Positions 16,384-26,619 of a stretch of DNA of 64,000 nucleotides are shown here, piece by piece (position 1 is the stretch's first letter; every line of letters starts with the position of its first letter). The notes beneath the pieces are model-generated. The model was not told the origin of the DNA. It did not search any database and saw nothing but the letters and a program-made list of their open reading frames with translations. A program made the position numbers and the translations under genes. The stretch covers positions 11,343-75,342 of the forward strand of contig CAJOHI010000007.1 of assembly GCA_905234365.1 (NCBI GenBank). Direction: 5' to 3'. Origin of the DNA: an uncultured Selenomonadaceae bacterium (GTDB lineage Bacteria > Bacillota > Negativicutes > Selenomonadales > Selenomonadaceae).

Positions 16384-16507
16384 AAAAATCACTTCTTTCA
16401 TTATGAAATTATTGTAATAATTATAATTCATAATCGAAATAAATGCAAAGAATTAATTTAACTCATTATGATAGTTGAAAAATAAAATTGTATAACTATT
16501 GTCTTCC

Positions 16508-16530
16508 ACCCGCATAGCGGGTAGTTTTTT
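16508..16530 (+). terminator. orphan plus-strand terminator-like hairpin
   Basis: ACCCGC-ata-GCGGGT followed by AGTTTTTT. No plus-strand gene lies upstream (see the island finding). Confidence 0.35.
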
Positions 16531-16560
16531 GTTTCGCTACGCTCAACAGGCTAAAGCCAT

Positions 16561-16633
16561 AATAAAAAAACTTCAATAAGTATGCTATACTACAAGCGTA
16601 TCAAATTGTAGAGAAAGCATAATCTTATTAAAG
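16561..16633 (-). terminator. long-hairpin rho-independent terminator of the HTH/TIR-like operon
   Basis: On the minus strand, CTTTAATAAGATTATGCT pairs with AGCATACTTATTGAAG. An inner stem CTACAA/TTGTAG is present. The hairpin is followed directly by TTTTTTTATT and lies ~100 nt after the stop at 16730. Confidence 0.5.
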
Positions 16634-16729
16634 TTTCACAATGATTATATCACTTCTATCTATACTTTGGAAGATTTTATCACTTTTATTTTTATTCTGG
16701 TTGACGTTAAGTTCAGGCGAAATGTTAAT

Positions 16730-17584
16730 TTACAATTTATTTAAATCTACATTATAACCGACACTTCTTAATTCTTTGCCTACTTGAGGTTCCCAGCCTT
16801 TTTCATATTGAATATATAATACTCCATTGATGTCGCTCGGCTTCTCAACATCACCTTCTACTAAAGCGCAAACTCTGTTACGACCTAATTTGCCAATCAA
16901 ATAACCGTGTTCAAAAATTACGTTTTGCCTTGCTCTGGGCTTCATATTTTCATAATCGGTATTAATTGTGCCACCTTTATCGCAAGGAGTGTAAAGAATT
17001 ATTCCATATCCAACATCAGTATTGTCTTCAATTTTTTCAATAATTGTTTTTCCTTGATTTGCCTGTTCGTGAAGTATTACAGGTTCCAATCCAAGTTTCC
17101 TTAAAAAATTTGATACGTCCAATTTTATTTTTTCATCATGTCCGTGTACAATGAAGACACGTTTATTATCGACAAAAGAAGTTTTCTTTTCTTGCAGTGA
17201 AGACTTAAAATTTTTCAATTCTTGCCGAACCTCCTTTAAAATTTCATTTGTGATATCGCAAACCAAATCTCTATCGTTTATGATGTCAGAGTTACTATAT
17301 GAAGATGCTATCCAAATTCCAGAAATTAAATTTTCATTATGTCTTTGCTTATTTTTAAAATCTACAAGATGTTTGATAGACTGTTCTGAGGAGACAATTT
17401 TAATGCGAGAGATTTCTGATTTATTCAAACAATAACCGTCAATTAAAAAATCTTCTTCCTTCAAGTAAGGCATTACAATTTCAGATTTAATTTCGTCTTT
17501 CGTTCGGTCTATTAAGGTCATAGAATTAATTCTTTTATTTTTTCCTGTACCTTCCGAAGTTTCAACGAGTACACTGTAGAACAT
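16730..17584 (-). CDS. unknown N-terminal domain fused to a TIR-like nucleotide-binding/NADase domain (Cap12/PycTIR-type, PF10137-like)
   Basis: 284 aa with AGGAGG 8 nt before the ATG. The C-terminal ~145 aa read VFIVHGHDEKIKLDVSNFLRKLGLEPVILHEQANQGKTIIEKIE...GIILYTP...PRARQNVIFEHGYLIGKLGRNRVCALVEGDVEKPSDINGVLY. This matches the TIR-like family pattern as I remember it, including the conserved Glu. I recognise no motif in residues 1-140. Confidence 0.75.
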   Translation of the reverse strand: MFYSVLVETSEGTGKNKRINSMTLIDRTKDEIKSEIVMPYLKEEDFLIDGYCLNKSEISRIKIVSSEQSIKHLVDFKNKQRHNENLISGIWIASSYSNSDIINDRDLVCDITNEILKEVRQELKNFKSSLQEKKTSFVDNKRVFIVHGHDEKIKLDVSNFLRKLGLEPVILHEQANQGKTIIEKIEDNTDVGYGIILYTPCDKGGTINTDYENMKPRARQNVIFEHGYLIGKLGRNRVCALVEGDVEKPSDINGVLYIQYEKGWEPQVGKELRSVGYNVDLNKL

Positions 17585-17620
17585 TTTAAATCCTCCTTAA
17601 ATCAACATTATTAAATCATA

Positions 17621-18421
17621 TCAAAAAGGAATATCAACATCAAAATTTTTGTCATCTTTTAAATCATCACGCATAAAAGCGTCAATAGAATTACGAGAAT
17701 ATGGATTAATTTTAGGACATCTTGAATCAATAACAATATTTATGTATAAAGAATCTACCATTTCAGTTAAATTTGATGAGTTTTCTCGATTGCTACAAAG
17801 GAATTCATTTCCTGTAAGAATGGAATGTAACCAAACCTCTTTTATCTGAAAATTTTTGTCTCCATCATGATAAACCGATTTTATGATATTCATAATGTAA
17901 AGTGTGACACCATTTTTTAGCCTCAGATTGAAACAAGAATCATTAATATAAGTATGGACATTAAAAGTGTTCGATTTAAATACCACTCTTTCTACATAAT
18001 CTGGAAACTCAGTTTCGCCTTCCTCATAGAAACTTTCAAAGCTGAAAAGAGGGTGATTTACATTACCATTCTTGTCTCGCTCCAAATGATTAAGGTCATA
18101 TTTTGTTTCCTTATTCCATTCCAATTTTCCGTCTATAGTATCTGAAGAAAGTTTCTGAAAAAACTTCAACAAGTAATTTTCAGTAGGCGTTAATTTTGAA
18201 AAATCGACTTTTAACAGAGCCTCTAAACTGACATTTAAGATTCTTGCAACATTCATGATAAAATCAATGCCTGGTTTGCTGCTGCCTTCCTTACTTGTTC
18301 TTGAAATATAACCTGCACTTACGCCGGCTTCCGCTTCAAGTTCACCTATCTTTTTTCCACTTTTTTTTACAAGATAATAAATATTGTTAAAAAGAAGGTT
18401 TTGATTGAAATTTTCATTCAT
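17621..18421 (-). CDS. XRE-family HTH protein with a ~190-aa uncharacterised C-terminal domain ending in the SSB-tip-like motif DVDIPF
   Basis: 266 aa with a GAGG RBS. The HTH reads YYLVKKSGKKIGELEAEAGVSAGYISRTSKEG...IDFIMNVARILNVSLEALL. I recognise nothing in the rest. The last residues are DDLKDDKNFDVDIPF-stop. Confidence 0.7.
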   Translation of the reverse strand: MNENFNQNLLFNNIYYLVKKSGKKIGELEAEAGVSAGYISRTSKEGSSKPGIDFIMNVARILNVSLEALLKVDFSKLTPTENYLLKFFQKLSSDTIDGKLEWNKETKYDLNHLERDKNGNVNHPLFSFESFYEEGETEFPDYVERVVFKSNTFNVHTYINDSCFNLRLKNGVTLYIMNIIKSVYHDGDKNFQIKEVWLHSILTGNEFLCSNRENSSNLTEMVDSLYINIVIDSRCPKINPYSRNSIDAFMRDDLKDDKNFDVDIPF

Positions 18422-18656
18422 TAGAATTATCCTCTCATTAAATTTATAATGATGTTATCATAATTTTACTAACATGTCAATATATAAAGTAAAATTTATT
18501 AAAAAGTCACTTATATTATGCTTAATTATGCGTTAGTAATAAAAAATATTCTTGTTTCCAATTTCGTAAATTATATAGGTATTAGCAAAGTTTTGGCGAA
18601 ATTTGAAGGTTAAATCGACAAAACAACATGTATTATCAGATTGAGGAGAAAAATAT

Positions 18657-20582
18657 ATGGTTACATTTTTTGAAAAATTGATAACTTTATTGAAACGGGA
18701 CAAAAGATTCATTTCAAAGGACGGAAAATTTCTGCGTAATGCTGTTTATGAATCCGCCATGAATCTTGATGAAAAACTTTTAAAAAATTTACTAGCTGAT
18801 GAAACTATAAGGAATTATTTTTTTGCAGAAGTAGACGGCATAAAAATTTTTGACAAAATAAAATTTGCTTGGGTGATTAATAATCGCCAATTTTTGCAGG
18901 ACAGTTACACTAGATTTAAAAATAAAATTGGACTCACTGACGAGAATGGAGATTTTATTTCAACTTCCGGCAAAGTAGAATTGGTTTTTCCTTACAAAGA
19001 TTGCGTACTTGAAGGCGGACAGACAAAAGACGACCAAAAGCGAAATGAAATTTTTTATAACGAACTTCTTGCACCTGATGAAATTAACAGATTGCTTTAT
19101 CCGAAAGTTTTAGTTGGTGCAAAAAGATATTCGGCTGACGGCGTTGAGACTGCGGAAAATTTTTCTGATAATGATAATTTGATTATCAAGGGAAATAATC
19201 TTATTGCCATTTCTTCGCTCCTCAAAAGATTTGAAAACAAAGTTAAATGTATTTATATTGACGTTCCTTATAACACAGGAAACGACTCTTTCGGCTATAA
19301 TGACAGATTTAATCATAGCACTTGGCTGACTTTTATGAAAAATCGCTTGGAATTGGCGAAAAAACTTCTTAATAATAGAGGAGTAATTTTTGTTCATTGT
19401 GATAATAACGAGCAAGCATACCTTAAAATTTTGATGGACGAAATTTTTGACAGAGATAAATTTGTTGAAACGATAACTGTAGTTAATAATCCTGCAGGTC
19501 GTGACTATGGCGGTATTGCAAATATGCACGAGTTTATTCATGTTTATTTGAAAAAATCTTATGATGATGCTTTATACAATATTCCTGATGAGGATAAAAA
19601 ATTTCCATATAAAGATAATCTTGGCGGTTTTGAAGTAAGAGAGTTACGAAACAGAAATACAACATTTAATGTGGAAAATCGTCCAAATTTATGTTATCCG
19701 TTTTATGTTAATCCAAATAAAAAAATTGATAATGATTTTCTGGAAGTTTCATTAGAAAAACAAAATGGATTCGTAGAAGTTATGCCGGCCAAATCAATGG
19801 GAATTCAAACCGTTTGGCGTTGGGGAAAAGAAAAATCCTCACAAAATTTAAATATAAATATTGTCGGCAAAGCAATGAGAGAAAAAAATCGCTATATGAT
19901 TGTTGAAAAATATCGTGAAAAAAGTAAAATGGCTCGTTCTGTGTGGTATGACAAAGATGTTAATTCACAAAAAGGAACAATTCATTTGAGGGAATTATTT
20001 GGAGAAAAAATTTTTAACTTCCCGAAACCTGAAGAACTCTTATCAAGAATTTTACAAATTGGATCAGAGGAAAATGATATTGTAATGGATTTTTTTCTTG
20101 GAAGCGGCACGACGGCGGCAGTTGCTCATAAAATGAAACGAAGATATATAGGTGTTGAGCAAATGGATTATATCCAAACGGTTACAGTGGAGCGCTTAAA
20201 AAAAGTTATTGGCGGTGAGCAAGGCGGCATTTCTAAAAGTGTTGATTGGCAAGGCGGCGGCTCTTTTGTTTACTGCGAACTTGCAAAACTTAATCAAAAT
20301 TTTATTGAAGAAATTGAATCAGCGAAAGATTTTGAAAAAATTTTAGCGATTTACAAAAAGATTATTTCTTTGGGCTTTGTCAGCTATAAAATTAATCCAG
20401 CGGATATTGAAGAAAATATCTCGGACTTTGCAGAGCTCTCATTTGAAAATCAGAAAAAATTTTTGCTGGAAATTCTTGATAAAAATTTGCTTTATGTAAA
20501 TTATTGTGACATTGACGATGAAGAATTTTCAATCTCGGACGCAGATAAAAAATTTACAAAAAGTTTTTATAAGGAGGATTAA
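18657..20582 (+). CDS. mod: Type III restriction-modification system, Mod (N6-adenine DNA methyltransferase, beta-class)
   Basis: 641 aa. Motif IV is [12 protein letters not shown] (DPPY-like). It precedes a variable region and motif [34 protein letters not shown]. The stop is 3 nt before res. Confidence 0.9.
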
Positions 20583-20585
20583 CCT

Positions 20586-23177
20586 GTGGCTTTTTTATAC
20601 GAAGAAATGGACGCTGTACGCAAATATGGAGGCATAGTAAATCTTCCTGAATATATAGCCGGAAATTTAAACCAAAATTTTGAGCTGCGCGATTATCAAC
20701 AAAAAGCATTTGAAAATTTTATAACCTATCTTGAAAAAAATCCTCAAAAGCCGACGCAAGTTTTATTTCACATGGCAACAGGCAGCGGAAAGACTTTAAT
20801 AATGGCCGGTCTTATGCTGTACCTTTATAAGCAAGGCTACAGAAATTTTTTGTTTTTCGTCAATCTTAAAAATGTTTTGGAAAAAACGCGAGATAATTTT
20901 TTAAATTCGACTTCTTCAAAATATCTTTTCGCCGATGAAATAATTATTGACGGCGAAAAAATTCGGATTAATGTCGTCGAAAATTTTCAGTATTCGGATA
21001 AAGACACGATAAATATTTGTTTTGTCACTACACAGAAACTTCATACAGATATGTTTTTTGTAAAGGAAAATGGAATGAGTTTTGATGACTTTGACGAGCG
21101 GAAAGTGGTTTTAATTTCCGACGAAGCTCATCACCTGAATGTAGACAAGCGAAATATGAATAAAGACGAATTGGAAAATCATAATTCTTGGGAACAGACG
21201 GTCAAAAACTTATTCAAAAGAAACTCACAAAATATTTTACTGGAATTTACTGCGACTTGTGACTTGGCGAATGAAAATATAAAAAATTTCTACGAGGATA
21301 AAATTGTTTTTAACTATCCTTTAAAAAACTTTTATGACGACAAGTACTCAAAAGATATCATTACACTTCGTTCAGATTTTTCTAAAATGGATAAAGCATT
21401 ACAAGCTCTCGTCCTTAGTCAATATAGGTTAAAAGTTTTTCAAGACAATCAATTAAGTATTAAACCTGTTATTTTATTTAAGCTTGCAACAATCGAAGAC
21501 AACAAAAATTTTATGTCCGATTTTATTTGCGAGATAAAAAAATTGAACGGTAATCGTCTGCTTGAAATCTCCAAAAAATGTAATAATGAAATTATGCACC
21601 GCGCATTTGAATATTTTTCAAAAAGCAATATTTCATTTGATATGCTTGCCGCAGAATTAAAAGATGATTTTTCGGAGCAACATTGCATTTCGGCCAATAA
21701 TGAGGACGACGCTTGTAAAAATCAACTGCTCCTCAATTCACTCGAAGATGTTGACAATCCTTACCGTGCAATTTTTGAAGTAAAAAAGCTGGACGAAGGC
21801 TGGGACGTGCTAAATTTATTTGACATTGTGCGTCTTTATGAAACAAGACAATCTGGCGGCAATAAAGTTTCACCTGTTACTATTGCGGAAGCTCAACTTA
21901 TTGGTCGCGGAGCAAGATACTGTCCGTTTAAAATTGATGAGGAACAATCGAAGTTCCAGAGAAAATTCGACGAAAATATAACCTGCGATTTGCGGACGTG
22001 TGAAACGCTTTATTATCATTGTCAAAATGATTCGCGCTATATAGCAGAATTAAAAAAAGCTCTCAAAGAAATTGGTCTTGACACTGATAAAATTATTCAG
22101 CGAAAATATATTCTCAAAGAGAGCTTTAAAAAAGATAAATTGTATAAACAAGGATTAATTTTCCTCAACGACAGAATTGAAACGAATCGCAAAGAAATTT
22201 ACGAGCTTATGCCATCTATCAGAGATACCATTTATAATTTTCAAGCTGACATGAGTTTATCAGTCTTAAATAAAATTATGTCAGACAATGCTGATGTCAA
22301 TGATAAAAAACCGGAATGGCATATCGAACGCTTTACAATAAAAGAAATTGCCGCAAAAAATTATGCGATTATAAATGAAGCCTTGATGAAATATCCAATT
22401 TATAAATTTGACACTTTAAAATCATATTTTCCAAATTTGAAGTCCACTCGGCAATTCATTACTGATGAAAATTATCTTGGCAATATCAAAATTGATATAA
22501 AAAATCTTGAACCGAAAATTTCACCTAAAGTTTTACATAACGCCGTATTCGATGTGCTTGGGAAAATATCAGATTCTATTTCAAAAATTGAAGTGATGTA
22601 TAAAGGAACAAAAGAATTTTACCCTAAAAATATAAATTCTATTTTCCACGATAAAATTGTTAAGTATTCTGAATTGCACGACGGCGGCATTGGAATATCG
22701 CAAAACGATCCTTCAGTTGACGATGATTTAAGGATTGATTTATCCGCCGAAGATTGGTACACATATACTGACAATTTCGGCACTTCTGAGGAAAAAGCCT
22801 TTGTAGCGTATTTTCGTGACCACATCAACGATTTGAAAAAAATTTACAATAAAATTTTCCTCATTAGAAATGAACGAGCATTTCATATCTATTCTTTTGA
22901 AAATGGCGAGCGTTTTGAGCCTGATTATGTACTTTTCCTTCAAAAAAATACAACTGACCAATTTGAGCAGTTGCAAATCTTTATTGAACCTAAAGGTACT
23001 CATTTGTTGGAAAAAGACGCATGGAAAGAAAAATTCTTACTAAAACTGAAAAATGAAGCTATTTCTGTGAAAACATTTGTTGATGATGTCGATTACAAAA
23101 TTTGGGGATTTTCGTTTTTCAATCGTGAGAAAACCTTGAAAAATTTTAACGAAAATTTCAGTGAACTGATTAAATAA
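20586..23177 (+). CDS. res: Type III restriction endonuclease, Res (SF2 helicase + PD-ExK nuclease)
   Basis: 863 aa with a GTG start after AAGGAGG. Helicase motif I is MATGSGKT and motif II is SDEAHH; QLIGRGAR is also present. The C-terminal nuclease-like region reads FEPDYVLF...IFIEPKG. Confidence 0.9.
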   Translation: MAFLYEEMDAVRKYGGIVNLPEYIAGNLNQNFELRDYQQKAFENFITYLEKNPQKPTQVLFHMATGSGKTLIMAGLMLYLYKQGYRNFLFFVNLKNVLEKTRDNFLNSTSSKYLFADEIIIDGEKIRINVVENFQYSDKDTINICFVTTQKLHTDMFFVKENGMSFDDFDERKVVLISDEAHHLNVDKRNMNKDELENHNSWEQTVKNLFKRNSQNILLEFTATCDLANENIKNFYEDKIVFNYPLKNFYDDKYSKDIITLRSDFSKMDKALQALVLSQYRLKVFQDNQLSIKPVILFKLATIEDNKNFMSDFICEIKKLNGNRLLEISKKCNNEIMHRAFEYFSKSNISFDMLAAELKDDFSEQHCISANNEDDACKNQLLLNSLEDVDNPYRAIFEVKKLDEGWDVLNLFDIVRLYETRQSGGNKVSPVTIAEAQLIGRGARYCPFKIDEEQSKFQRKFDENITCDLRTCETLYYHCQNDSRYIAELKKALKEIGLDTDKIIQRKYILKESFKKDKLYKQGLIFLNDRIETNRKEIYELMPSIRDTIYNFQADMSLSVLNKIMSDNADVNDKKPEWHIERFTIKEIAAKNYAIINEALMKYPIYKFDTLKSYFPNLKSTRQFITDENYLGNIKIDIKNLEPKISPKVLHNAVFDVLGKISDSISKIEVMYKGTKEFYPKNINSIFHDKIVKYSELHDGGIGISQNDPSVDDDLRIDLSAEDWYTYTDNFGTSEEKAFVAYFRDHINDLKKIYNKIFLIRNERAFHIYSFENGERFEPDYVLFLQKNTTDQFEQLQIFIEPKGTHLLEKDAWKEKFLLKLKNEAISVKTFVDDVDYKIWGFSFFNREKTLKNFNENFSELIK

Positions 23178-23291
23178 AAGTATCGAAAAATTTTATTTAA
23201 GTTCGAGAACAAATTACTAAATTATTGACAAATGTGCCGGATAAATCCAACTAAAGCCTAAAACATTCATTCATAATTGCCAAAGAAATTG

Positions 23292-24329
23292 TCAACGATT
23301 ACTTTGCTTGTCTAAAAGATAGGAGCCAATCTGCATGCTGTAGAGGATTGATATATTGAAAAAGAACGTTGCCAATGCCGCACTGTCACCGACTTTGGAA
23401 AATTCTTCACGAATTATATCGTCAAGCAATGCTGCTGAAAATTTTTTGTAAACAATAAATAAATGTCTAAAAATATCTTGAGTAATGGCATCGAGAGCAA
23501 GATATTTTACTTCGGGATGCTGCTTGTAAAATTCAAGCCCGCTTAAAAATTTATCACAACAGGAAAAACTTGTCGCTAGTGATCTGATCCATTTTTTGAT
23601 GTATGAAGTTGTATCTTCTCTGCTGTGCAGAATTGAATTTGGACGATAGCGATAAATATTCACAGGATCAGGAAATTTTACAAAACGCTTGGCACAGGAC
23701 AGACAATAAATAGTAAAAACTAAATCTTCATTATTGAGAGTCAAAGGATAATTAATATTATTTTCGATCATAAATTCGCGACGCATTAATTTTGACCATG
23801 CTGTCCAAACATATCTCTGATCGTGAAAATTTTTAATTCTTTTGGTGATATTTTCGGTTTCTAAAGTCGGTACAGTAACATATCCATCAGGCTTAAAACT
23901 CTTTACAGTCAAAGTTGCACCTTTTAAATGAGGAGTGTCGGAAGTAAAAAATTTTTCACATTGAACAATATCCGCATTAAATTTTTCTGCAACTGTATAG
24001 AGCAATTCAAGTGCATTTTTTATAATTAAGTCATCACTGTCAAGGAAGAATAAATATTTTCCGCAAGCGTAATTCATGCCGATATTTCGTGGTACAGCAC
24101 AACCGCCAGAATTTCTTTCCGATTCAATAAGTCTGAGTTTTCCGTTGAATTTTGGAAGATAATCTTGCACAACATTTCTGCTGTTATCTGTCGAACAATC
24201 ATCAACAATGATGACTTCAAAATCCTGAAAAGTCTGACACAAAAGGCTGTCGAGACATTCACCGACATATTTTTCAACGTTATACATTGGAATTACAACG
24301 GAAATTTGAGGAATATTTTTTTCGTTCAT
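23292..24329 (-). CDS. family 2 glycosyltransferase
   Basis: ISVVIPMYNVEKYVGECLDSLLCQTFQDFEVIIVDDCSTDNS and LFFLDSDD (DXD). Confidence 0.9.
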   Translation of the reverse strand: MNEKNIPQISVVIPMYNVEKYVGECLDSLLCQTFQDFEVIIVDDCSTDNSRNVVQDYLPKFNGKLRLIESERNSGGCAVPRNIGMNYACGKYLFFLDSDDLIIKNALELLYTVAEKFNADIVQCEKFFTSDTPHLKGATLTVKSFKPDGYVTVPTLETENITKRIKNFHDQRYVWTAWSKLMRREFMIENNINYPLTLNNEDLVFTIYCLSCAKRFVKFPDPVNIYRYRPNSILHSREDTTSYIKKWIRSLATSFSCCDKFLSGLEFYKQHPEVKYLALDAITQDIFRHLFIVYKKFSAALLDDIIREEFSKVGDSAALATFFFNISILYSMQIGSYLLDKQSNR

Positions 24330-24350
24330 TTAAATTCCTCCGCCGAAAAA

Positions 24351-24976
24351 TTATTTTTTTACTTTGCACCTGTCATAAAGGTCTTGTGTATAAGGATTTA
24401 AAATATCTTTATTTGAATCGCTAATAAAAAGTTCAGGATTTAAGTCGCCATAATATTTTTCGCCTTTTACAATGTAGTAAAGCATATCAGCTACACGATA
24501 TAGAACAATATTTGTTCCAACCGGCGGAAACGGTTCCAAATCATTTCCGTTAAATTGACCAAGCACGGAATCCATTTCCATAGAATTGATATTGCTGTCA
24601 ACAGTCGCACGAATCATAAATCTTGCACGATGTGAACCGTCTTCTTGTTTTGTTTTGTAAAAAATAGCAAATTCATACATGCCGTAAAATTCACAAGTGA
24701 TAATAAAACGTCCATCAGGTAAATCGCCATATTTAATAGTTTTATAATCGAGATAATGTGTTTTTTTGTTTGGAAACAGAGGCGAAGCGCAACCTGCAAA
24801 AATAATTTTTGGATCACCATTCAAAAACCAATCTCATCAACAAAAATATGCGGCGAAGTTTCGACAGGTTTTGCCGCTGCTAAGTTAAAAATGAAAAATT
24901 CCGTAAGAACAATAAAAAATATAAACCGTAAAAGATTAGTAGCAAACATTTTTAAAAATAATTTTTGAATTGACAT
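24351..24976 (-). pseudogene. secreted hypothetical protein whose signal peptide is separated from the mature part by a frameshift at a T5 run
   Basis: AGGTG RBS plus ATG 24976 opens a 51-codon ORF, MSIQKLFLKMFATNLLRFIFFIVLTEFFIFNLAAAKPVETSPHIFVDEIGF-stop (24821-24823). The 157-aa ORF (24351-24824) begins at an RBS-less TTG one base out of frame. One extra T in the run at 24823-24827 fuses them as ...EIGFLNGDPKIIF. Confidence 0.5.
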
Positions 24977-25106
24977 AAAATCACCTCTGCTTTCTTATTT
25001 GCTCCATTTTATCATAGGAAATGGCATTTTGCAATTATAATAAATCGAAAAATCTTAGTAGTACGGGCAGCAAGAAAACTTGATATCATTAATGAGTTTC
25101 AAAATT

Positions 25107-26387
25107 TTAATTAATTGAGTCAAATTCAAATTTCGGATTGAAAAACTTCGCAAATGGTGAAGACTGCCATCTGGAATTTATTTTTTGCTCAATATCATTA
25201 ATTTCTTCAATGTGAGTTTCCGGCATCAAAATTAAAAATTGCTTCTTGCCATTTTGAGTTACACAATCACTTGGTTGTAAACTATTTAGGAGTAACTCGC
25301 GGAACCCGTCAAGCGCATCGGAATTTTCAGTATTGAGAGTAATCTGCATAATTTGAACATCTCTCTTATAATTACGTACCAATCGAACAAACATTCGATA
25401 AATTTCCTTAAAACCATTAATTTCAACAAAATATGCTCCATTACTAATTATTCTTTCGCCAAGAATCAACTGCATATCTAAAAGTTTTTTTCTATCAGAT
25501 TGATTAATATCTTCATCGCCATAAAATGAACAGCTATGTTTGCCTGTTTGCTTTGCTTCATATAATGCCCTATCTGCTTTTTTATACAAAATTGAAAAAT
25601 CTGTTCCATCACTTGGAATAAACACAGCTCCCATTGATGCGCCAAATGGAATATTTATATCTTTTCCTATAATTTCTTTGGCAGCGGCCGATATTTTTTC
25701 ATTAAGGAAAATTGCTTTTTCAATCACTTTCGATTCATCTTGAATATTTTGACAAAATACAATAAATACATCGCTGCCCATTCTTCCGGCTAAATCAGAA
25801 GCATAAATTGTTTCTTTAATCAGTTCTGCAAAACGAATTAATATTTTGTCTCCTACATCATGTCCATAGAGATCATTGACAAGTTTAAAAGAGTCAAGGT
25901 CAATTATCATCAAAACACCCGGATGTTTTCGACAAGATTCACTAATTTTTTGTTGAGAGGCAGTTTTATTCAAAAGCCCTGTTAAAGCGTCTATATCAAC
26001 AGCTTGTTTAAGTCCGCGAATTTTATTTGAATTACGCAGAACATTTTGGATCCTACGAATCAAAACGTCCGATTTAAAAGGCTTATGAATATAATCGTCA
26101 ACGCCTATATCAAAACCTCGTCGCTCACTATCTGAATCTTCATCTGCTGTCATAAAAATTATGGGCACATGATCAAAATTTTTTTCTCGCAAAATTCGAT
26201 GAAGTTCATAACCGTTCATTTCTGGCATCAATAAGTCAGAAAGCACCAAATCAGGTTTTTCTGTCTCAAAAATCGTTAAAGCCTCTTTGCCTGATGAGGC
26301 CGTGACGGTCTGAAAATGTTTTGAGACTATTATTGATGCTAGTCTAAGCATTACAGGATCATCATCTACTATTAAAACCTTTTGCAC
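25107..26387 (-). CDS. response regulator: REC + degenerate GGDEF domain + uncharacterised C-terminal domain
   Basis: REC reads VLIVDDDPVMLRL...DLVLSDLLMPEMNG...IHKP. The GGDEF-domain core is DALTGLLNK...DLDSFKLVNDLYGHDVGD, but the signature reads GRMGSDVFIVF (GSDVF instead of GGDEF/GGEEF). Confidence 0.85.
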   Translation of the reverse strand: MQKVLIVDDDPVMLRLASIIVSKHFQTVTASSGKEALTIFETEKPDLVLSDLLMPEMNGYELHRILREKNFDHVPIIFMTADEDSDSERRGFDIGVDDYIHKPFKSDVLIRRIQNVLRNSNKIRGLKQAVDIDALTGLLNKTASQQKISESCRKHPGVLMIIDLDSFKLVNDLYGHDVGDKILIRFAELIKETIYASDLAGRMGSDVFIVFCQNIQDESKVIEKAIFLNEKISAAAKEIIGKDINIPFGASMGAVFIPSDGTDFSILYKKADRALYEAKQTGKHSCSFYGDEDINQSDRKKLLDMQLILGERIISNGAYFVEINGFKEIYRMFVRLVRNYKRDVQIMQITLNTENSDALDGFRELLLNSLQPSDCVTQNGKKQFLILMPETHIEEINDIEQKINSRWQSSPFAKFFNPKFEFDSIN

Positions 26388-26619
26388 CTAAATACACCTC
26401 ACTTAAAATTTTTTAGTCTATGATTTTAATTTTTATTACATTTACGCCACGTTTAATGTTTCAGAACACATACTTTTTATTCGATTATATTAAAATATCA
26501 GTTTAATTTCAAGTATCATTATATTAACTCTGAAAATTATTTTTTGAGGTATGGTATTTAAATAATTGGAAATAAAAAAGCGGAAGAAGTCCGACTTTTC
26601 TCCCGCTCTTAGTTTGTGA

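Follow-up and report, generated by a model that had tools for sequence, protein, structure and literature searches.

TIR domains of the PF10137 type are NAD+ hydrolases (NADases) that are activated by oligomerisation (bioRxiv 10.64898/2026.04.30.722052). A systematic survey of TIR proteins explicitly left stand-alone members aside. The family closest to the protein considered here, PDC-S35, was published as untested, one of 145 single- or multi-gene candidates in a set drawn from genes that lie within BREX, DISARM and Type I restriction-modification (R-M) loci (Payne et al., bioRxiv 10.1101/2024.01.29.577857). As regards regulation, the immune controllers CapH+CapP, CapW/BrxR and CapK+CapS respond to single-stranded DNA (ssDNA) or to DNA damage. 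We analysed a stretch of 64,000 nucleotides from an uncultured Selenomonadaceae bacterium (contig CAJOHI010000007.1, positions 11,343 to 75,342; hereafter the window), in which two adjacent minus-strand genes encode an XRE-type helix-turn-helix (HTH) protein and, downstream of it, a TIR protein. With a probability of roughly 0.6, the pair represents a stand-alone CAP12-type TIR NADase of the PDC-S35 family placed under an autoregulated, prophage-derived XRE-HTH repressor. The locus is defence-related. At its core stands a protein from a single-gene candidate family that had been catalogued before, and what is new is the operon in its regulated form, together with the family of the regulator.

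The TIR protein was matched end to end by the PADLOC model PDLC05007, which stands for PDC-S35 (E = 2.7e-101, 336.9 bits; residues 1-284 against profile positions 1-277 of 278), and four further PDC-S35 models also matched it (1.7e-81 to 4.4e-45). The initial annotation of this DNA had taken the gene pair for an uncatalogued two-component system. This has to be corrected for the effector, since PADLOC already holds it, the TIR gene only and as a candidate only, and it stands in so far as the pair is a recurring operon variant. The recognition of a C-terminal CAP12/Pycsar-type TIR domain with its catalytic glutamate was borne out: PF10137 (CAP12-PCTIR_TIR) aligned to residues 142-261 over profile positions 1-118 of 119 (1.8e-41, 141.3 bits against a cut-off of 24.7), and E225 of the NVIFEHG motif did not vary among 28 aligned homologues, which come from Bacillota, Bacteroidota and Proteobacteria. 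A profile of the family matched the Cap12 TIR-STING structure 9lmq at 3.2e-7, with NVVFEHG aligned to NVVFEFG, and 7un8 was matched as well. In order to compare folds, an AlphaFold2 (AF2) model of the protein, with a predicted local distance difference test (pLDDT) score of 86, was run as a whole chain through Foldseek. The top PDB hits were the TIR domains of SfSTING (7un8, 1.3e-5) and TIR-STING, with values up to 4e-4, and only TIR or CheY-like flavodoxin folds were returned.

The part of the protein that precedes the TIR domain is no lineage-specific oddity. Its small alpha/beta domain was kept across phyla, with Y3, D26, P39, G50 and R60 invariant in the same 28-homologue alignment (A2), and the linker that follows it varied among the homologues in both sequence and length. 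We presume the N-terminal domain to be a sensor or an assembly domain. The earlier statement that the first ~140 residues match nothing holds for the Pfam and NCBIfam scans, in which no family covered this part; it does not hold for the PDC-S35 profile, which extends over it. A protein search with residues 1-135 alone gave no matches, a result set by the word-index limit of the search, and the full-length matches share the domain. At E<=0.001 the family comprised at least 7,761 homologous clusters among the 8,000 candidates scored, spread over several phyla. A literature search of open-access papers and bioRxiv preprints returned no paper naming PDC-S35, and a search of the same sources for defence tests of stand-alone PF10137 proteins found no direct precedent, which is weak evidence of absence. 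Residues 126-279 also matched phrog_16442, a family of unknown function, at 2.8e-60; phages, therefore, too carry PF10137-type TIR proteins, with a different N-terminus.

Both open reading frames (ORFs) are real genes as judged by their numerous homologues, and the operon anatomy described in the initial annotation was confirmed in the sequence: a gap of 36 nt between the genes, a ribosome-binding site (RBS) for each, a closing hairpin with a run of seven T residues, and divergence from the mod-res genes across 235 bp. The AGGAGG motif lies 8 nt upstream of the TIR ATG, and an RBS of the GAGAGGA type precedes the HTH ATG. The hairpin was retained in the RNA-fold centroid, with a z-score of only -1.7 for the 201-nt stretch containing it; a simple G+C-based terminator scan did not report it, because its stem has too few G-C pairs. 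Within the AT-rich gap between the HTH gene and mod (18422-18656), the best promoter match was TTGACA, 17 nt and a TG-extended TAACAT (18480-18452), and a perfect 9-bp inverted repeat, AATTTTACT-N17-AGTAAAATT, flanks its -35 element on both sides. The layout TTGAC-N8-GTAAA-N4-TGATAtTAT was kept upstream of most members of the HTH family, and further GTAAA-type motifs were often found upstream of the -35. This conserved promoter layout suggests autoregulation by the HTH family.

It is most likely that the HTH regulator binds the GTAAA-type sites around its own -35; it would thereby act as an autorepressor of the bicistronic transcript and hold the level of the toxic NADase down until repression is lifted by a signal. 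We infer this from the conservation of the promoter and operator and from the way in which XRE repressors, CapH, CapW/BrxR and CapS work; such control would also resemble that exerted by C-proteins. The 284-aa TIR protein, with its N-terminal alpha/beta domain, helical linker and TIR NADase domain, is a self-contained, single-polypeptide candidate abortive-infection effector. By analogy to Cap12, TIR-STING, PycTIR and the amoeba protein TirC, it would have no activity as long as it is monomeric. Sensing of a trigger by the N-terminal part would lead to oligomerisation and convert the protein into an active NAD+ hydrolase, and the resulting depletion of NAD+ would arrest the infected cell and abort the infection.

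The proximal protein had been described as an XRE HTH followed by an unknown fold, and both parts of this description agree with our results. As a single sequence it scored 18 bits against PF01381 (HTH_3), under the Pfam cut-off of 23, while the family profile matched SinR structures (3qq6, 5.7e-8) and phrog_8, a transcriptional regulator family, matched the protein at 6.7e-7. SinR and P22 c2 (both with TM in the range 0.76-0.81 on the target) and the 434 repressor superposed on the N-terminal 70 residues of its AF2 model (pLDDT 85, predicted TM score 0.78). With the whole-chain model, Foldseek returned nothing from the PDB beyond the HTH at E<=0.001, and the C-terminal domain is so far without a match among these solved structures. 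Fold matches to SaPI2 Stl, cyanase and HppE (probability 0.4-0.9) were rejected on account of a root-mean-square deviation above 13 A and a TM of ~0.2. In BFVD a full-length relative was found in an uncultured siphovirus (A0A8S5MN69, Siphoviridae; 4e-11). The family is small, with 202 homologous clusters at 90% identity, in Bacillota; used alone as the query, the C-terminal domain retrieved 225 representatives at 50% identity among 1.84 billion proteins, and the HTH was N-terminal to it in all family members examined. About one third of the relatives of the C-terminal domain form a longer class of 330-400 aa (for example P0242, P0245 and P0273, within P0241-P0390), with ~100 extra residues before the HTH, possibly a coiled coil, that have no Pfam match.

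In order to determine the usual surroundings of this regulator, 103 independent HTH-family loci (23 from species-representative genomes and 80 from metagenomes) were compared by synteny clustering and by Pfam and PHROG scans. A prophage-like layout was recovered, as exemplified by L013 (3893-12159) among loci L001-L109. Upstream of the HTH gene lies either a phrog_4031 protein of ~630 aa or an ExoV/Dda-like helicase. The HTH gene is followed by a gap of 0.3-0.6 kb or by a variable gene, often convergent, and beyond this slot come a sigma-70 region-4-like gene, phrog_408, a DUF2800 PD-(D/E)XK nuclease, an Enc34-type SSB (a protein that binds single-stranded DNA) and a family-A DNA polymerase (PolA). 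The slot was seen to hold defence-like genes, namely LmuA-like genes (L007-011; for example L007 7112-7948), a PDC-M48B gene with a metallo-beta-lactamase (MBL) fold (L017 6840-8326), a PD-T4-1-like gene with HNH (L020 7423-8979) and a Schlafen/AlbA_2 gene (L006 7646-9115). The recurrent layout and the variable slot thus mark the HTH protein as a prophage early-region regulator at an accessory-gene hotspot. When the window TIR protein was used in tblastn, a TIR gene was found within 5-6 kb of the HTH gene in none of the 103 loci.

The HTH protein ends in a disordered acidic tail that resembles the C-terminal tip of SSB. A C-terminus of the form [LIVMFY]-P-F was present in 97 of the 120 HTH family representatives (P0121-P0240, alignment A1), the commonest ends being DDDLPF, DDSIPF and DETIPF, and the last 20 residues of the family contained on average 7.5 acidic and 0.8 basic residues; as a control, only one of 554 neighbouring ORFs had such a tail. 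In the other two TIR-linked lineages the tail is shortened (…DDENCF and …DSKINF). The SSB C-terminal (SSB-Ct) hexapeptide DDDIPF is the tip on which many proteins of replication and repair dock (PMC5872125), and our search of open-access papers and bioRxiv preprints found no description of SSB-Ct mimicry on transcriptional regulators. The tail may serve for binding SSB partners, as a DNA mimic acting on the protein's own HTH, or as a degron. A more specific proposal, which we regard as doubtful, is that the HTH proteins form an undescribed controller family whose tail, by copying the SSB tip (DD[DE][IL]PF), acts as a decoy or reporter of the SSB interactome. Recombinases, helicase loaders, nucleases and other proteins that a phage makes on infection or induction and that dock on SSB tails, or else ssDNA that alters the availability of SSB tails, would titrate the regulator off its operator and switch on the cargo, here the downstream TIR NADase. 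If true, this would be a fourth and mechanistically new kind of 'controller of adjacent pathways', in which the protein traffic at the replication fork is read out as immune gene expression. The prophage SSBs of the Enc34 type (DUF2815; L005, L036, L052, L058, L059, L075, L078-L080 and L082, the C4 cluster) have a conserved acidic tip of their own, DDDDFL[SDGA], which is unlike the host-type IPF/LPF tip of the HTH proteins.

The TIR family was found in different company. Six relatives at 52-75% identity were inspected (Table 1), and an upstream HTH gene is absent from all six. The effector is therefore used alone, typically appended to restriction-type systems. The embedding in BREX or Type I R-M loci from which PDC-S35 was derived was seen for several of these homologues (L114, L117, L118 and L120-122); the window copy adjoins a Type III R-M system and is not embedded in R-M. 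Such surroundings make it attractive, as far as the trigger is concerned, to regard the TIR protein as a guard or back-up of R-M in the manner of PrrC, which would fire when a phage anti-restriction protein disables the adjacent restriction or BREX system, the HTH protein setting expression only. The family is repeatedly found inside defence loci at only 2-8 nt from the upstream gene, as in hsdS-TIR (L118, L120-122), MmeI-TIR (L123-124), a Type I operon (L114) and BrxC-TIR-PglX (L117), and the PrrC/EcoprrI precedent is discussed together with these candidates (bioRxiv 10.1101/2024.01.29.577857). However, the genomic-sink idea put forward in the same preprint can account for the embedding too, the window TIR gene runs divergently to mod-res, from a promoter of its own, and two of the paired lineages described below (L024 and L128-130) adjoin a PD-T4-4_A-like ATPase and a mad8-like gene, which are not R-M genes. 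We consider a guard function of this kind unlikely. A separate observation concerns an AbiH-family gene (413-457 aa), which repeatedly lies 13-17 nt after the PDC-S35 TIR gene (L110-113 and L119-122), the couple being preceded by a Type I hsdS or by an AAA_15/21 ATPase and a 221-aa gene; TIR and AbiH may form a recurrent cassette.

In order to assess whether the two genes of the pair belong together, the HTH subclade of the window protein was followed separately. In a neighbour-joining tree of the 120 HTH representatives, the window protein grouped with P0224, P0188 and P0122. A PDC-S35 TIR gene lies downstream, at gaps of 27-49 nt, in three of these four members: besides the window, P0224 is followed after 49 nt by P0018 (L024) and P0188 after 27 nt by P0032 (L126-130). 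The remaining member, P0122, is the closest HTH relative of the window protein (72% identity); 18 nt downstream of it, an unrelated protein of 383 aa is encoded (L027). Identities in the HTH proteins were 53% between the window and P0224 and 65% between P0224 and P0188, and the corresponding TIR identities were 59% (window and P0018) and 73% (P0018 and P0032). The window TIR protein is nearer to the R-M-embedded copies that have no HTH (75% and 67%) than to its counterparts in the other pairs (59%). Around the paired loci lie genes of defence or mobile elements, namely a PD-T4-4_A-like ATPase, a mad8-like gene and a Toprim/DnaB_C primase-helicase. Since the pair occurs in three diverged lineages (the window, L024 and L126-130), it is a real and conserved operon variant. 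The supposed co-occurrence of the two genes is thus confirmed for three lineages of one HTH subclade, but outside it the genes are found apart, and with no TIR gene at 103 HTH loci and no HTH gene at six TIR relatives the HTH protein is not the defining partner that the initial annotation had made of it.

Conservation of this kind would also be expected if the pair were a functional unit, that is, a true two-component system in which infection would be sensed by the C-terminal domain of the HTH protein, and activation or release of the TIR protein would require this domain. The adjacency has been kept in three diverged lineages with congruent identities and tight gaps of 27-49 nt, and a C-terminal domain that matches no solved structure could be a sensor. 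Yet the nearest relatives of the window TIR protein (75, 67 and 65%) have no HTH gene and follow hsdS or precede AbiH, the nearest HTH relative is coupled to the unrelated 383-aa gene, ~100 other HTH loci have no TIR gene, and the PADLOC model for the TIR protein is that of a single-gene candidate. This reading, too, is unlikely, and we rank it after a guard function. The pair fits best as a regulator with a self-sufficient effector, not as a sensor with its effector. The simplest reading is that a subclade of prophage regulators came to head a small cassette whose cargo is usually, but not always, a PDC-S35 TIR protein, and that the TIR protein is independent of the regulator. The 383-aa protein of L027 (1300-2451, +) has an acidic, coiled-coil-rich C-terminal half and gave no match in Pfam, PADLOC or PHROG scans; the same regulator may have in it another cargo or effector, so far undescribed. 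The possibility that it shares the N-terminal domain of the TIR family was rejected (hhalign probability 0.4%). At L024 (1-5819, -), a four-gene cluster divergent from the HTH-TIR pair encodes a 445-aa protein without a match, a mad8-like protein of 554 aa, a HATPase_c_3 protein of 518 aa and one with a faint radical-SAM match, and looks like another uncharacterised defence-type operon.

Several points weigh against a repressor-controlled stand-alone NADase. Both the defence function and the NADase activity of PDC-S35 are predictions, as its authors list the family as untested, and the trigger and the role of the N-terminal domain of the TIR protein are conjectural. The candidate operator is defined by motif conservation only, and repression by the HTH protein is putative. 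A weak promoter-like match (17643-17615) overlaps the spacer at the end of the HTH gene; such matches occur regionally at chance frequency (16 found, 14.3 expected), and this one could drive the TIR gene independently. Finally, the congruent divergence of HTH and TIR proteins in the three paired lineages is what a co-evolving two-component system would show as well.

A pair resembling a Type II toxin-antitoxin system, in which the HTH protein binds the TIR toxin and represses the operon, and loss of a labile antitoxin frees the NADase, was also considered. The gene order of regulator and then toxic enzyme, the candidate autoregulatory operator and a disordered C-terminal tail that could serve as a degron all recall such systems. 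We find the idea improbable, as a protein of 266 aa with a large folded C-terminal domain is atypical of an antitoxin, the HTH family mostly has no toxin neighbour and the TIR family is viable without the HTH protein. Least probable of all is a decayed prophage edge, an HTH gene and a superinfection-exclusion moron left behind by prophage loss and paired without present regulatory meaning: the family is prophage-borne, with variable accessory genes (LmuA-like, PDC-M48B, PD-T4-1-like with HNH, Schlafen) just downstream, and the islet is low in GC, but the two ORFs are intact, as are their promoter, RBSs and terminator, an identical locus (L025) is present in an assembly from another sample, and a search around the islet revealed no integrase, other phage genes or att-like direct repeats, only short AT-rich chance matches.

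The islet in question (~16500-26500) has 29-33% GC compared with 36-41% in its flanks. In addition to the HTH-TIR pair it holds the Type III R-M system, a GT2 glycosyltransferase gene (23292-24329), a 157-aa ORF without a family (24351-24824) and a response-regulator/GGDEF gene (25107-26387). PADLOC assigned the R-M genes to Type III (MTase_III 5.6e-182 for mod, REase_III 2.9e-123 for res), in keeping with the defence-islet setting proposed earlier. The coordinates of all features are collected in Table 1.

Table 1. Features of the HTH-TIR locus in the window, and genomic contexts of relatives of the window TIR protein
Feature	Position or locus	Strand	Description
TIR gene	16730..17584	(-)	284 aa, ORF call; distal gene, stand-alone TIR protein of the PDC-S35 family
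CAP12/Pycsar-type TIR domain	16760..17161	(-)	aa 142-275; catalytic Glu E225 at 16910-16912
Helical linker	17186..17377	(-)	aa 70-133; from AF2 secondary structure; long helix at 112-133
N-terminal small alpha/beta domain	17387..17584	(-)	aa 1-66; beta-beta-alpha-beta-beta-beta; pLDDT 82-97
Intercistronic spacer	17585..17620	(-)	36 nt; AGGAGG RBS at 17592-17597; no terminator
XRE-HTH gene	17621..18421	(-)	266 aa, ORF call; proximal gene of the pair
Disordered acidic tail	17624..17671	(-)	ends in DVDIPF; pLDDT 44-62; resembles the SSB C-terminal tip
C-terminal domain of HTH protein	17672..18187	(-)	aa 79-250; long helix, antiparallel sheet of 7-8 strands, two helices
XRE/Cro-C1-type HTH DNA-binding domain	18209..18403	(-)	aa 7-71
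Promoter and candidate operator	18452..18496	(-)	TTGACA, 17 nt, TG-extended TAACAT; inverted repeat
Terminator-like hairpin	~16561..16633	(-)	long, AT-rich, followed by U7; 3' of the TIR stop; closes the bicistronic unit
Type III R-M	18657..23177	(+)	mod 18657-20582, res 20586-23177; divergent neighbour; any functional link hypothetical
P0002	L118, L119		75% identity to window TIR; directly after Type I hsdS or directly before AbiH
P0004	L120-122		67% identity; hsdR-hsdM-hsdS-TIR-AbiH, gap to hsdS 2 nt
P0005	L110-113		65% identity; AAA_15/21 ATPase, 221-aa gene, TIR, AbiH
P0020	L123-124		61% identity; after MmeI-type enzyme
P0050	L114		56% identity; within Type I operon
P0056	L117		52% identity; BREX, between BrxC and PglX

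Should the TIR gene prove protective by itself, PDC-S35 would become a single-protein NADase defence of wide distribution (more than 7,700 clusters in several phyla), and it would bring with it a new sensor domain of ~66 aa, the trigger of which could then be searched for. The window holds a naturally regulated version, complete with promoter and candidate operator, and is suited to the study of how a toxic stand-alone TIR protein is silenced. The more original lead is the regulator, a prophage-borne XRE family that combines a C-terminal domain without a solved-structure match, an SSB-tip-like tail and a slot for defence genes. If the tail engages SSB partners, phage replication and recombination proteins would be tied to the transcriptional control of immunity or lysogeny.

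Among the known systems, the absence of canonical TIR partners noted earlier was upheld: no CD-NTase, cyclase, ThsA, SAVED/STING or reverse transcriptase (RT) was found among the called genes within 8 kb on either side of the identical locus L025, the scope of all comparisons of neighbours that follow. By Pfam families, the locus has neither the CD-NTase nor the cyclic-nucleotide sensor of CBASS. It has no cyclase as in Pycsar, the PycTIR hidden Markov model (HMM) reaching only 2.9e-7 over the TIR part, and its TIR is of the PF10137 and not the PF08937 type, with no ThsA-like neighbour as in Thoeris. The Cap12 equivalogs of NCBIfam scored 43.8 and 34.8 bits against a cut-off of 450, over the TIR part only. 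Cap12/TIR-STING of CBASS and PycTIR of Pycsar nevertheless belong to the same PF10137 subfamily and share its glutamate motif (NVVFE-G) and fold (7un8, 9lmq), and by this analogy NAD+ hydrolysis dependent on oligomerisation would be expected of the window protein. In contrast to them, the window locus has no CD-NTase or cyclase and no STING, SAVED or transmembrane sensor domain, and its presumed sensor part is a different, undescribed domain of ~66 aa placed N-terminal to the TIR.

On the side of the regulator, a controller (C) protein of the neighbouring Type III R-M system was rejected, as no Control_protein HMM matched and ~100 loci of the family lie in prophage and not in R-M contexts. The arrangement of lambda cI-rexAB is similar in that a phage-type XRE regulator and an abortive-infection gene share a transcript, and the HTH family likewise has a variable slot downstream; the window differs in having no prophage, and a role of the HTH protein as a phage immunity repressor is only putative. 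As with CapH+CapP, CapW/BrxR and CapK+CapS, the gene of a DNA-binding repressor sits at the promoter from which a potentially toxic immune gene is expressed, and the design is modular, the same regulator family being found with different cargo. The HTH protein differs from these controllers in lacking a CapP protease, a WYL domain and a kinase partner, and in having another C-terminal domain, a mainly prophage-borne family and an SSB-Ct-like tail; regulation is putative here. The capH HMM matched weakly (0.0086) and over the HTH part only, no peptidase gene is nearby, and the 190-aa C-terminal domain falls outside the ~100 positions of the capH model. The closest likeness is to PDC-S35 itself, which has the same architecture of an N-terminal domain and a TIR and whose homologues lie in Type I R-M and BREX loci. 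The window gene differs in standing unembedded, under its own promoter and behind an XRE-HTH regulator.

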